Under the pieces are notes generated by a model. It did no database searches. It saw only the letters and a list, made by a program, of their open reading frames with translations, and was not told the origin of the DNA. Position numbers and translations under genes: made by a program. A stretch of DNA of 64,000 bases from Escherichia coli (GTDB taxonomy: Bacteria; Pseudomonadota; Gammaproteobacteria; Enterobacterales; Enterobacteriaceae): the NCBI RefSeq assembly GCF_045037415.1, contig NZ_CP173438.1; one strand, written 5' to 3'. Below are positions 10,688-55,763 of this stretch, in pieces. The stretch's first letter is position 1; each line of letters begins with the position of its first letter.

Positions 10688-10774
10688 AACACATCAGATT
10701 TCCTGGTGTAACGAATTTTTTAAGTGCTTCTTGCTTAAGCAAGTTTCATCCCGACCCCCTCAGGGTCGGGATTT
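10688..10774 (+). ncRNA. dsrA: DsrA small regulatory RNA
   Basis: AACACATCAGATTTCCTGGTGTAACGAATTTTTTAAGTGCTTCTTGCTTAAGCAAGTTTCATCCCGACCCCCTCAGGGTCGGGATTT recognised as DsrA, including its terminal hairpin and U-run. Confidence 0.85.
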
Positions 10775-45888: not shown

Positions 45889-46071
45889 TTATTTCTGATT
45901 AGGCGTAATCAGTTCTTGTGGGGTGAATGCCGATTTCTCCCGAGTGACCTTAATGTTTTCTGGCAGGTGTAGCCCAAGTTCGCAGCGGCTCCGTGCTTCA
46001 ATAATGCCATTGGTACCATCGGCAAGTACCAGGTGAACCGCGTCACCACGCTTTAATGTGAGTTTAAGCAT
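45889..46071 (-). CDS. Hypothetical small prophage protein
   Basis: 60-aa ORF whose stop abuts the downstream gene's start. Confidence 0.4.
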   Translation of the reverse strand: MLKLTLKRGDAVHLVLADGTNGIIEARSRCELGLHLPENIKVTREKSAFTPQELITPNQK

Positions 46072-48853: not shown

Positions 48854-48883
48854 TGGTCTTTCCTCATTACAGGTCAGTGGTTT

Positions 48884-49204: not shown

Positions 49205-49209
49205 AGCGA

Positions 49210-50214
49210 CTCCTTGGTAATGTATACTCAGAGCCGATCAGCGAATATTGATCAGCTTCCATAGCGTCAGTGTCGTTGGTCTTTCCTCATCACAAGTTTG
49301 GTCACTTGTGATAAATCCGAATGGTTTGGTCGCCGTTCGGGGTAACTGGCCCGCCTTGTGCGGGTCTTTTGCTATCTAAAGGGTGCCGGTTACGTTTCCG
49401 GCGTCGTTATGTTTCCATTACGACCGTACAGGGCTGGTCAGGCCCGGGCTGGTCTTTCCTGTTTTGAGCTGGTCAGGCTCATGGTCAACGCTGGTCAGGC
49501 GTGGTACTTCCTCCGGTCTTTCCCTGGTGTCACGCTGCGGGTTTGGCCTCTCCTGTTGGGGACTCAGGCACAGCGATAAAACCTGGCTGTGTGAAAAAAT
49601 GGCCCATCGTGCGGACTGGGCAAAGACTAAACACAGCAAATTGATGATGGGCGCCCGGAATCGAACCGGGTAACGGGCAGGGAGTTCCCGTTAAACACCT
49701 GTTCACCACAACCGGGAGCGCACTCCGCCATTTCAAAATTTAACGACAAAGCTCAAAGTTGAGTCGATGAAGTGCGCTCTCGTGTTGTAGCCAGGACTCT
49801 TCCCTGGTGGTCACACCGTATCGCCTTGATGGTGAATCAATCGCTCATACCTGGCTGTGGCTTGCACATTCCGGCTACCTGCTATGGAGACAACGCGTTA
49901 AGGCTCCGCTTCCATCCAGACCGCTTCGACACATGTGCCATATGCCGGTGAAGTCTTTCCCTCTGTCACCGTGTTGGCGCCGACGCGCAAAATTTGGTGC
50001 CGTCTTTCCGGCTGTCAGAACGTGTTTCTGAACAACTGCCGCTGGGTAAGCGTTGTTGATGAAAGTGACTTTACAATTTGTATTTGTAATGGTCAATGTG
50101 TTTTTAAAAAATAATTTGTAGTTAGGGGCAAAAAAATATTCACTGTGTAAAGGTGTTTTTGTGTTAGGGGAAAGTTGCATGCCAGCAGCGGCTGGCCTGG
50201 AAATTTGAACTGAA
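49210..50214. repeat. About 1-kb prophage noncoding region rich in short direct/inverted repeats (GCTGGTCAGGC and GGTCTTTCC families)
   Basis: No convincing ORF on either strand; GCTGGTCAGGC at 49433, 49468, 49491; TCTTTCCCTGGTG-like units near 49516, 49797, 49953. Confidence 0.6.
50071..50125. promoter_or_regulatory. Operator-like repeats downstream of the repressor gene (OL-like)
   Basis: TTACAATTTGTATTTGTAAT and ATAATTTGTAGTTA, related to the repeats in the cI/cro intergenic region. Confidence 0.4.
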
Positions 50215-50629
50215 CTATTTTGTCTGGTTTTTGGCTTCAAGTAGTTCTTTTAGCAGTAGATCGAAGTGCTCTCTTTTTTCTTTTAGCTCATTGATTAATT
50301 TATTTTTTTCGCTCTCAGGCAGTCCTCTGAATAGTTGCAGTAGAGCCTGTTCTTGCGGGGTTAGTTCTTGATTGTAATTACCCGGGTGTAGTGTGGATTC
50401 ATCCAAATATTCCCCTTCATTCATGAAGAAAAAATGAACAGGGTATCCGGTCACTTTTGCTAGCTTGTCTAATTTATCTTTTCTTGGAGTTACCCCATTA
50501 CACCATGCCTGAACTGATTGAGCCGTAACCCCAATATGGCGAGCTAACTCAGATTGAGAACCAGCCTAAGTCTTTTAGAATCCGTTGTAGTCGGCTAGCA
50601 AAAGCCATGTTTTTCGTTTTTGTGTTCAT
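50215..50629 (-). pseudogene. cI-like XRE-family HTH repressor, disrupted by a +1 frameshift
   Basis: N-terminal stub MNTKTKNMAFASRLQRILKDLGW then stop; the HTH continues SQSELARHIGVTAQSVQAWCNGVTPRKDKL... in the next frame; deleting one T in TGGTTCTC near 50558-50562 restores a single ORF. Confidence 0.7.
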
Positions 50630-50727
50630 ACCGTAAGGATACAAGGTTTAATTGTAGGGAGCATTGCAAATATAATTTGTAATTACAGTTATTGTTTGTA
50701 ATGATGACGCGGACACAAGGAGTCCAT
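50630..50727. promoter_or_regulatory. Divergent immunity promoter/operator region (OR-like) between cI-like and cro-like genes
   Basis: Perfect 10-bp palindrome TGTAATTACA at 50678-50687 plus TTGCAA and TTTGTAAT repeats; TATAAT-like -10 element. Confidence 0.55.
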
Positions 50728-51493: not shown

Positions 51494-51532
51494 GCGCCTG
51501 ACCAGCGTTTAACTTATACCGAGGAAAGACCG

Positions 51533-51757
51533 ATGTTAAGACATATTGACCGCATTACCTGGCGTAACGGCTGGCACCTGAATGGACGCCCGGCACATGT
51601 TGCAGAGATCCGCCCCATATTCGATGGCCGCGTCGCAGCTGCACGTTCTGTATGGGAAAAGTACGAAGAAGAAAAAGCGAAACTGCGTGAGCAAAATCTC
51701 TCTGGCGCTGCCTATGAGGCTGGCTGTCGCGTTCTCTCAGAGGCTTTGGGCATATGA
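51533..51757 (+). CDS. Hypothetical small prophage protein
   Basis: 74-aa ORF preceded by the conserved CGCCTGACCAGCG...GAGGAAAGACC motif. Confidence 0.5.
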   Translation: MLRHIDRITWRNGWHLNGRPAHVAEIRPIFDGRVAAARSVWEKYEEEKAKLREQNLSGAAYEAGCRVLSEALGI

Positions 51758-53914: not shown

Positions 53915-53952
53915 CCACGCCTGACCAGCGTGAAATAACCGAGGAAAGACCA

Positions 53953-54363
53953 ATGACCACCACTCCAGGCAAATTAGAGTACCCGTCGGACAAAGGACAC
54001 ATAGACGACGGTAAAAACTATCTCGACGTCATTTTGTGGAATATGAACGTCGGGCCACGTGCGCGCACTCGCGCGGTTTTTGTGCCAAGACCTAAAGCAG
54101 GCAATTTTTCAACCCCTGCTAAGCCTGCCCGTCAGGCATCCGTAGCCGCAGCGCCAGCAGTGAAACGTAAGGGCAAAACGCACACCGGGATCGCGATTCG
54201 CAGAAATGGTGAGCGGCAAGTGAAACTCCACGAAACAGCGACAACCTGGTGTGCCTCACCGCATGAAACTTACGACAAGATAACCGGGCAGCGCATTGGC
54301 GCGCCTGGTCGCTGCCGCCTGCTGCTGAGTTCCATCACTCCGATAGCAAAGAAAGGGGCGTGA
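53953..54363 (+). CDS. Hypothetical prophage protein
   Basis: 136-aa ORF preceded by the conserved intercistronic motif. Confidence 0.5.
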   Translation: MTTTPGKLEYPSDKGHIDDGKNYLDVILWNMNVGPRARTRAVFVPRPKAGNFSTPAKPARQASVAAAPAVKRKGKTHTGIAIRRNGERQVKLHETATTWCASPHETYDKITGQRIGAPGRCRLLLSSITPIAKKGA

Positions 54364-55539: not shown

Positions 55540-55763
55540 ATTGACTTAGAAAAAGTCCGGGGCTATAGTTTCCGCGCAGCCGCAAAATCGGTTGCCGGGA
55601 TTGGCGTCCCGGATATCTAAGTGACGCATAGCCGCGTTAGCGGTTTTTTTATGTGTTAGGCACGGCCACATTCGCATTATGGTGGGCTGTGTGGGGGCTT
55701 CTGTGGAAGCGCCGGGTTCACTTAGCCGGTTACGCCAACCCTGCACAGCTCACCACCAGATGA

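Follow-up and report, generated by a model that had tools for sequence, protein, structure and literature searches.

A probable early leftward leader of an Escherichia coli prophage: a chain of RNA modules with a homolog of the RprA 3' domain

The DNA analyzed here (the window) is a stretch of 64,000 nucleotides (nt) from Escherichia coli (assembly GCF_045037415.1, contig NZ_CP173438.1). Its region 49210-50214 lies in a prophage, next to the repressor gene, and is rich in short repeats. An earlier note on this region, made from the sequence, had listed iterons or an origin, a partition-like site, regulator binding sites and a structured antitermination RNA as candidate functions. The region is described below as a putative untranslated leader that carries a homolog of the 3' domain of the host small RNA (sRNA) RprA, an inserted pseudoknotted RNA, and copies of a hairpin cassette that recurs before early genes of the prophage.

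The locus and its putative promoter

To the left of the region, on the minus strand, lie the open reading frame (ORF) ORF106 and the genes for a 738-amino acid (aa) exonuclease, a Gam-like protein, a 60-aa ORF, an excisionase and an integrase. The ORF106 protein is acidic and belongs to phrog_2479, a family without assigned function. To the right lies a helix-turn-helix repressor gene (minus strand), followed by plus-strand genes for Cro-like, CII-like, O-like and DnaB-like proteins. The gene order is identical in the nearest sequenced phage, "Stenotrophomonas" phage BUCT708, which is 71% identical across 85% of the region. Sequence type 131 (ST131) strain EC958 and 415 further complete genomes carry the region at 99.9% identity, in chromosomal copies only, and the prophage is present, at an identity of at least 99%, in the majority of the 473 matching genomes. 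In EC958 it is integrated beside the glyW-cysT-leuZ tRNA genes.

The region is noncoding. Its nine longest ORFs, including those that overlap its ends, have no match to PHROG at E≤0.01, the single marginal match (E 0.017) being to a family of unknown function, and the alignment with BUCT708 contains many insertions and deletions whose length is not divisible by three. RefSeq annotates nothing there in 447 E. coli genomes; the earlier note had likewise seen no credible ORF, a view borne out by all three results. The note had also proposed that an intact gene at this place in homologous phages would mark the region as a decayed gene. No ORF of the region has homologs and no relative has an intact gene homologous to it; E. 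coli strain C41 and the related loci L016 and L025 carry only an unrelated insert of ~500 bp. Since that insert is not an intact version of the window sequence, the region is not considered a decayed gene.

Operator-like repeats at 50071-50124, with the palindromic form TTRCAA-N7-TTGTAA, match those at 50664-50698 between the repressor gene and cro (repeat families D6/D7), and a promoter scan finds TTGACC-17-TAAAGT facing leftward at 50096-50068. Relatives have an identical TTGACC promoter at the equivalent leader position. Because of the repeats, which resemble a left operator (OL), and the leftward promoter whose position is kept in relatives, the region is read as the leader of the early leftward promoter PL, probably transcribed on the minus strand from ~50061. 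The predicted OL operators and PL span 50065..50125 (-35 TTGACC at 50096-50091, -10 TAAAGT at 50073-50068; minus strand). The early-left position proposed in the earlier note agrees with these features. Its suggestion of regulator binding sites holds for the right-hand ~60 bp, where the operator-like repeats lie, and not for the rest of the region.

For comparison, 49 related loci were collected using ORF106 as anchor and 41 leader variants were compared. All 41 start with a conserved 5' hairpin, AACAACG...CAGUUGUU, which served as their anchor and lies at 50031..50057 (minus) in the window. On the repressor side, a GCCAGC-CGCU-GCUGGC hairpin found by direct reading at 50181..50196 (minus), right after the repressor stop codon, is possibly the end of the repressor transcript. 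The repressor gene itself (50215-50607, minus) has one extra T at ~50560, GGCTGGTTCTC where EC958 has GGCTGGTCTC, so that its frame shifts after ~16 codons. This is either a sequencing error or the mark of a repressor-defective prophage in which PL and the rightward promoter PR would be constitutively open. Spacers from clustered regularly interspaced short palindromic repeat (CRISPR) arrays of E. coli LS45 and 2020CK-00188 match leader parts at ~49483-49526 and ~49273-49305 (95.5% and 100% identity); therefore E. coli CRISPR adaptation has sampled this phage leader.

The RprA-like module and the inserted structured RNA

A homolog of the RprA 3' domain lies at 49594..49640 (minus) and is supported by a sub-threshold Rfam match, by BLAST, by alignment with relatives and by a terminator scan. 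It consists of a seed, UUUGCUGUGUUUAGUCUUUGCC (49640-49619), a terminator hairpin (49621-49602) and a U6 tract (49599-49594). A BLAST search of 49650-49586 against complete E. coli genomes returns the annotated rprA in ~5,000 of them; the match spans 50 nt, is 84% identical and runs in the same direction. The Rfam RprA model (RF00034) matches 49702-49592 (minus) with 37.4 bits, the gathering threshold being 70, and with E-values of 0.028 over 2.5 kb and 0.0044 over 0.4 kb. The homologous stretch corresponds to the last ~50 nt of RprA and has the same layout, a 3' seed followed by an intrinsic terminator. RprAproc, a natural processed 3' species of RprA of 47 nt, is active alone in E. coli (PMC9262595). 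The 5' domain of RprA that pairs with rpoS is missing, its place being taken by an unrelated tRNA-like remnant; lacking this domain and scoring below threshold, the window copy falls outside RF00034 as curated. The other Rfam matches of the region, at gathering as well as permissive thresholds, are chance ones (IRES_IGF2, tRNA-Sec).

The seed and terminator are kept in 36 of the 41 leader variants, and in L039-L043 a 22-nt stretch, AAUUGCUGUGUGUAGUCUUUGCC, is exactly that of E. coli RprA, and CAACGAAU upstream of it is shared with RprA as well. The module also extends well beyond these leaders. It is present in E. coli phages LLS, Eeyore, Flotzy and vB_EcoM-606R2 and in N4-like Erwinia phages, where the Ea9-2 copy stands immediately after the thymidylate synthase stop codon. 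In LLS, an unrelated temperate phage, it likewise sits in the stretch that separates the repressor from the first early gene. An exact 21-mer of the seed is found in at least 120 IMG/VR contigs. Among the seed instances listed, 113 of 121 are without the chromosomal RprA 5' half and eight have it; these instances comprise 58 terminator variants with covarying stems and 54 distinct upstream contexts. No mention of phage RprA homologs was found in the searchable literature, a 2025 review of phage sRNAs included. The Pas sRNA, described in a preprint and considered as a possible overlap, is unrelated.

Immediately past the U tract lies an anti-seed, CACACAGC (49586..49593, minus), which is complementary to the seed and is recovered in the centroid fold. 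It stands in the same register in all 20 distinct pairs of seed and downstream flank examined, with duplex energies of -7 to -13 kcal/mol. The anti-seed could pair with the seed only in RNA that reads through the terminator.

The phage module and RprA, in particular RprAproc, share a homologous seed and terminator domain and a layout of single-stranded seed, GC hairpin and U tail. They differ in that the module is without the RprA 5' half, the part that base-pairs with rpoS and the translation-initiation region of narP. Its promoter is a phage one under repressor control, whereas that of rprA depends on Rcs. The module is also part of an mRNA leader, has an anti-seed directly behind it and, in the window copy, scores below the Rfam threshold.

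Upstream of the RprA-like module, at 49706..49948 (minus), lies a pseudoknotted structured RNA of ~245 nt. Unrelated phages have matches to segment 49947-49776 in noncoding gaps, namely the uetakeviruses SPN1S, Tyrion and PAT1, Klebsiella phage SopranoGao and the P1-like D6 and SJ46, and an invariant 15-mer, GCCGGAATGTGCAAG, occurs in at least 100 IMG/VR contigs. The structure was derived from an alignment of 27 representatives (A2), and a covariance model (R1) was built for the family. It begins with a P1 hairpin, a P2 that contains an insert of variable sequence, the joining region GUAGCCGGAAUGUGCAAG, which is invariant, and a variable P3. These are followed by P4, whose loop UCACC pairs with a downstream GGUGU in a pseudoknot, by P5 with the loop GAAGAGA, and by a long closing P6. 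In A2, 98.9% of the cells are paired, nine pairs are compensatory and 61 cells show a compensatory change. The covariation score is 0.259 against 0.116 in shuffled alignments (none of 500 reaches 0.259), and slid controls give at most 0.081. The RNA strand is the window minus strand, since G-U pairs are frequent in it. A second pseudoknot is possible between the P1 loop GGCACAU and AUGUGC; both are invariant and therefore give no covariation signal.

Over the whole window, model R1 has a single match, at 49948-49783 (142 bits, E 4e-43), which covers P1-P5. The window row of A2 contains P1, P2, P4, P5, the UCACC/GGUGU pseudoknot and GUAGCCGGAAUGUGCAAG. P6 pairs 49788-49771 with 49724-49706, its arms (ACAAC..GAGAGC and GCUCUC..GUUGUGG) being seen as inverted repeat I5, 49713-49724 with 49771-49782. 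In L061, D6, SopranoGao and L104 the P6 arms vary yet stay complementary. The conserved 'AUGAGAGC' that follows P5 was considered as a start codon and rejected, as variants have ACGAGAGC, AGGUAAGAGC or CAAAAGAGC in its place and these letters form the 5' strand of P6.

A tRNA on the same strand accompanies the structured RNA in 35 of 106 distinct contexts. It is either a tRNA-Arg(UCU) downstream, mostly starting right after the P6 3' strand, or a tRNA(CAU) that ends ~14 nt before P1. Other copies have, by direct reading, their own sigma-70 promoter and a terminator-like hairpin, so that they look like free-standing RNA genes. When bacterial genomes were scanned with the 15-mer, most of the 120 matches listed were chance ones in unrelated phyla; a simple motif filter left nine candidates, mostly in Enterobacteriaceae (Citrobacter, Pseudescherichia, Superficieibacter, Pseudocitrobacter). 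In contig L104, AGAUGCUGUGUGUAGUCUUGG stands ~230 nt after the structured-RNA 15-mer, so that an RprA-like seed accompanies the structured RNA in another setting as well.

Between the structured RNA and the RprA-like module of the window lies the tRNA-like remnant (49646..49705, minus; predicted fold), which has a perfect T-arm, CCCGG-UUCGAUU-CCGGG, at 49670-49654. Only this arm is intact: ARAGORN finds no tRNA in the remnant or the region, and the Rfam tRNA-Sec match reaches 19.3 bits against a threshold of 47. BUCT708 is without the remnant.

ROOL and GOLLD RNAs are often found beside tRNA genes. They are large ornate structured noncoding RNAs of phages and prophages, with no role assigned (10.1101/2024.12.08.627333). 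The structured RNA described here is likewise a phage- and prophage-borne structured noncoding RNA. However, it is far smaller (~160-250 nt), it has no Rfam match at E≤10, the ROOL and GOLLD models included, and the true members seen come from Enterobacteriaceae and their phages.

Rfam matches outside the region include, in the same prophage, isrK (80 bits), C4 antisense RNA (75 bits) and the C4 a1/b1 target (53 bits) at 55563-55760 (plus), just upstream of a 278-aa ORF, where EC958 annotates an ORF6N-domain protein. By these matches, 55563-55760 is a P1 immI-like or Gifsy-1 IsrK-like RNA switch. The chromosomal part of the window contains the host sRNA genes dsrA (10688-10774, 102 bits) and rseX (2265-2354, 94 bits), as expected there.

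Hairpin repeats, the cassette and the mosaic leader

The repeats reported in the earlier note are all present, and comparison with relatives resolves them into hairpins and a translation-start motif. The three copies of GCTGGTCAGGC it placed within 70 bp are exact copies at 49433, 49468 and 49490, all within 68 bp. With up to one mismatch, the reverse complement GCCTGACCAGC occurs five times in the whole window against 0.97 expected, a count equaled by none of 100 shuffles. Its several GGTCTTTCC / GTCTTTCC units, which read GGAAAGAC on the minus strand, stand in the region at 49279, 49452, 49516, 49953 and 50002, with a further one just beyond at 48856. The window has 11 copies of GGAAAGAC against 1.53 expected (six in the top shuffle), all of them in the prophage; those left of the immunity region are minus-strand copies and those right of it plus-strand copies. 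Its three TCTTTCCCTGGTG(G)TCAC-like units are found at ~49516-49534, 49797-49817 and 49953-49971 and are not of one kind: two are hairpins of the form UGACA-stem-GAAAGA, and the third is helix P5 and a pseudoknot strand of the inserted structured RNA.

The UGACA-stem-GAAAGA-stem-ACC hairpins (class I) are found in leaders only. Their GAAAGA loop and UGACA 5' flank are fixed, and at least 12 different complementary stems occur among relatives. The window has UGACA-GCCG-GAAAGA-CGGC-ACC at 49996..50017 and UGACA-GAGG-GAAAGA-CUUC-ACC at 49947..49968 (both minus), the two being supported by stem variation and the second also by repeat family D5. A class I-like hairpin, GUGACA-CCAGG-GAAAGA-CCGG, lies at 49513..49533 (minus) and is kept in BUCT708. 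At 49382..49405 (minus), where relatives have a class I hairpin, the window has GCCGG-AAACGUAA-CCGGC-ACC with a diverged loop.

These hairpins bear on a rival reading of the leader as an antitermination leader. In this reading, the boxB-like GAAAGA hairpins and the CUGACCA-loop hairpins described below are recognition sites, used by a phage or host factor or acting directly on RNA polymerase like HK022 put, and PL and PR transcripts would resist the leader terminators and Rho over a long untranslated stretch. Lambda boxB has similar small purine-loop hairpins (GAAAA, GAAGA) past early promoters and before terminators. All relatives have one or two terminators between PL and the first gene, the purine-rich loops are invariant on covarying stems, hairpins are present in both early operons, and an untranslated leader of 850 nt would otherwise be open to Rho. 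However, no small arginine-rich, N-like protein is found among the early ORFs downstream of PL, ORF106 being an acidic member of phrog_2479. No boxA-like element was established either, and, unlike nut sites, many copies are found per operon, coupled directly to start codons. An antitermination leader is on balance a rather unlikely explanation.

The GCTGGTCAGGC units are three hairpins with a CUGACCA loop (stems ACGC/GCGU, UGAGC/GCUCA and GGGC/GCCC) that lie with one GGAAAGACC (49451-49459) at 49430..49502 (minus). They are orphan copies of a cassette whose complete form is found at gene starts. Four GGAAAGAC copies (45681, 48856, 51523 and 53943) are ribosome-binding sites of the form GAGGAAAGACC(A/G)ATG, and precede the genes for the excisionase, the exonuclease, a 74-aa ORF and a 136-aa ORF, respectively. 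In two of the four, a small CUGACCA-loop hairpin stands 16 nt upstream, giving hairpin, GGAAAGACC and ATG in succession at 51496-51535 and 53919-53955. The equivalent arrangement is present in BUCT708. In 33 distinct IMG/VR relatives, 150 of 181 copies of the cassette motif are on the early-left sense strand, and the 31 on the opposite strand lie nearly all upstream of the leader, in early-right gene territory. The CUGACCA loop is constant over 34 distinct stems in the genomes compared; the five window hairpins alone have five stems, the further two being UGAGCGC/GCGUUUA and CACGC/GCGUG.

Two more hairpins precede ORF106. At 49278..49312 (minus), AUCACAAGU-GACCAA-ACUUGUGAU is followed by GAGGAAAGACC with no start codon after it. 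Its counterparts among relatives have covarying stems (UACAGGG, GCCGGG and others) around an unchanged GACCA loop, and GGAAAGACC is likewise unchanged, at -53 to -62 from the ATG. At 49205..49262 (minus) is a pre-ribosome-binding-site hairpin with a CUGAUC loop, whose arms differ and are complementary in relatives, together with the Shine-Dalgarno sequence AAGGAG of ORF106 (ATG 49204).

Cluster K mycobacteriophages have a comparable element, SAS/ESAS, a conserved asymmetric sense-strand motif a few bases before several start codons with an upstream inverted repeat (PMC3203893). The cassette has the same arrangement at the window copies 45681, 48856, 51523 and 53943, in BUCT708 and in the 33 relatives. 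The analogy is functional only: the sequence is unrelated (GGAAAGACC and a CUGACCA-loop hairpin), the host clade is different, and the leader contains orphan copies without a start codon. Pairing of GGAAAGAC with the RprA-like seed (GUCUUU) was considered as an explanation of the motif and rejected. It would span just 6-7 bp and is lost in relatives with an altered seed (L052, L038), and the seedless leaders L057 and L017 retain GGAAAGAC motifs.

The GGA within GGAAAGAC leads to a second rival, a CsrA-type regulon or sponge. The motif, which stands in hairpin loops and across Shine-Dalgarno sequences, would be bound by host CsrA or by the 60-aa ORF60 (45889-46071, minus), possibly CsrA-like, and the 6-8 leader sites would titrate or nucleate the binding protein. 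Known CsrA sites likewise have GGA in the loops of hairpins and across ribosome-binding sites. With a limit of E≤10, Pfam has a single match for ORF60, namely CsrA (positions 1-45 of 53 aligned, i-Evalue 1.6), and an hhalign comparison with a small CsrA alignment yields P = 0.0016 for columns 1-47. ORF60 (phrog_2482) is conserved in Salmonella, Citrobacter, Klebsiella and Enterobacter prophages. Its sequence has a CsrA-like pattern, MLxLT..GD...LGxHxPxxxKVTRE, for which the statistical support is weak. On the other hand, the Pfam match is non-significant, no ORF60 homolog matches CsrA individually, and a profile search of the Protein Data Bank (PDB) sequences with ORF60 finds no CsrA. The hhalign probability is just 16%, the CsrA sequences in that alignment having been entered by hand. 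The AlphaFold2 (AF2) model of ORF60 has no Foldseek match to CsrA or RsmE, a monomer model being a poor test for an interleaved dimer. In addition, the conserved motif (8-9 nt) is longer than and unlike the CsrA consensus. A CsrA-type function is considered unlikely.

Fixed loops on compensatory stems, strict strand specificity and G-U pairs indicate that selection acts on the RNA, and iterons, an origin and a partition site are excluded on that ground. Of the structured antitermination RNA suggested in the earlier note, the structured-RNA part is strongly supported by the covariation of the inserted RNA and of the class I and CUGACCA hairpins. Short direct repeats clustered in a noncoding region had favored iterons. 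Iterons would be regular direct repeats of ~17-22 bp, with a Rep gene and an AT-rich stretch. Instead, the repeats are 8-11 nt long, irregularly spaced, strand-specific and spread over 13 kb at gene starts across both early operons, and form hairpins with compensatory stems. The O-like and DnaB-like replication genes lie 1.5-4 kb to the right, and no partition genes are seen. That the region is a set of iterons, a replication origin, a partition site or a decayed protein gene is highly improbable.

The relatives also define the architecture of the leader, which is 351-870 nt long among them. In 33 distinct relatives (ORF106 52-59% identical) it is a compact 350-450 nt and retains only the part next to PL, the RprA-like terminator and the 3' part. 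It starts with PL and the 5' hairpin, followed by one or two GAAAGA hairpins or a variant. In the middle are AUUGCUGUGUGUAGUCUU and the terminator, then GGAAAGACC and two hairpins, the first of CUGACCA type and the other of GAAAGA type. After them come a second terminator, which is two-way, the GACCA-loop hairpin with GGAAAGACC, the CUGAUC-loop hairpin, the Shine-Dalgarno sequence and the ATG. The window counterpart of the second terminator is a GC-rich hairpin at 49348..49366 that has a U tract on the plus strand only, as seen in the terminator scan and by comparison with relatives. In the compact relatives it would work as a two-way terminator; in the window it would stop antisense transcripts only.

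The window leader is this compact scaffold with two inserts, 49947-49643 and 49585-49403. In C41, L016 and L025, the different insert of ~500 bp stands at the first leader hairpin. In the C41 insert (L002 3780-4190), a 74-aa ORF runs in the sense direction and a ~64-aa coiled-coil ORF on the opposite strand is convergent with it; the two could be a small accessory or toxin-antitoxin-like pair. Since compact relatives are without inserts and different relatives have different ones, the leader is a hot spot where accessory cargo inserts, in this lineage as RNA modules and in C41 as small genes. Some leader modules are common to unrelated phages, namely LLS (L302 1290-1495), D6 (L004), L007 and L009 upstream of the structured RNA. 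These are a long hairpin, ACAAC.GUGAAAGCGCAC...GUGCGCUUCCAGUUGUGGUAAU, which resembles P6 without the core, and also GGUGGAGGCACCACCGCCACAAC. Their sequences suggest a common pool of mobile RNA parts.

The strongly mosaic leader, the inserts that differ among relatives and the complete cassettes at gene boundaries can also be explained at the DNA level. The repeats would then be module boundaries (recombination linkers), the leader copies would be scars of accessory gene gain and loss, and the leader RNA would do no more than carry the RprA-like terminator. Against this, orphan copies hold their order and distance to the ORF106 start where the flanks have diverged past BLAST detection, and fixed loops on covarying stems mean selection on a folded strand rather than on a duplex. 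Recombination linkers are considered an improbable account of the repeats.

Proposed working of the leader

The region is most likely the ~850-nt untranslated PL leader of a BUCT708-like prophage at leuZ in an E. coli of ST131 type, a chain of RNA modules from which PL would drive a terminator-limited sRNA that mimics RprAproc. The noncoding status, the strand-specific RNA motifs, the module boundaries, the homology to RprA, and the family membership and covariation of the structured RNA are established here.

In the proposed mechanism, PL would fire on induction or infection, and many transcripts would end at the RprA-like terminator. The predicted product is a primary RNA of ~465 nt whose 3' end is laid out like that of an Hfq-binding sRNA and would mimic processed RprA. 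It may be trimmed at the tRNA-like element. In read-through RNA, the anti-seed would sequester the seed, and ORF106, the exonuclease and the Gam-like gene would be expressed. The cassette, which in its complete form contains the ribosome-binding sites of at least four early genes, would supply translation starts and perhaps protein binding or RNA stability.

DicF of the Qin prophage is made in a similar way, a terminator inside a leader defining the sRNA and read-through yielding mRNA. The same is true of StxS in the PR' leader of Stx phage (PMC7547250). In each case the operon is under the control of immunity or antitermination, and the phage sRNA is made from its beginning. The sequences are not related, however; the sRNA part of the present leader is homologous to a core host sRNA and is accompanied by extra RNA cargo.

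Several points weigh against this RprAproc-mimic leader. PL, the transcription start and termination are deduced from sequence. With the RprA 5' half absent, the match to RprA stays below threshold (37 against 70 bits), and the seed of this lineage has one substitution, UGUGUUUAG in place of UGUGUGUAG. Termination may be weak, since the terminator stem is of 5-6 bp and a CA separates it from the U tract. The structured RNA is dispensable for leader function, as the compact relatives, where model R1 finds no match, are without it. Finally, the cassettes could act at the DNA level as recombination linkers and not as RNA.

More tentatively, and as a possibility rather than an expectation, two undescribed phage RNA families may meet in this leader. 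The first would be the pseudoknotted RNA as a new functional class, carried by many phages of Enterobacteriaceae (uetakeviruses, P1-like phage-plasmids, Lastavirus and BUCT708-like prophages), either as its own gene or fused to tRNA-Arg(UCU) or tRNA(CAU). Its role would be, for example, that of a tRNA-processing or self-cleaving element, or of an RNA decoy against host defence. The second would be a phage-borne RprA 3' domain, carried by temperate and lytic Enterobacterales phages, including N4-like Erwinia phages, which enters the Rcs/RpoS/biofilm sRNA network or sponges RprA partners at the start of infection. Conversely, rprA itself may derive from such a phage leader. The RprA-like phage module, the structured RNA and the hairpin-ribosome-binding-site cassette are found neither in Rfam nor in searchable papers.

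Among extraintestinal pathogenic E. coli, ST131 is the dominant clone. Were the leader to release an RprA mimic, induction of the prophage would put a regulator into the Rcs/RpoS/curli/NarP network of these bacteria, and in strains with a broken repressor, such as that of the window, its expression might be constitutive. More generally, three ideas can now be tested directly: that phages copy the active end of a central host sRNA, that a well-supported yet unannotated structured RNA travels with phage tRNA genes, and that a phage can punctuate its early operons with a fixed cassette of hairpin and ribosome-binding site.

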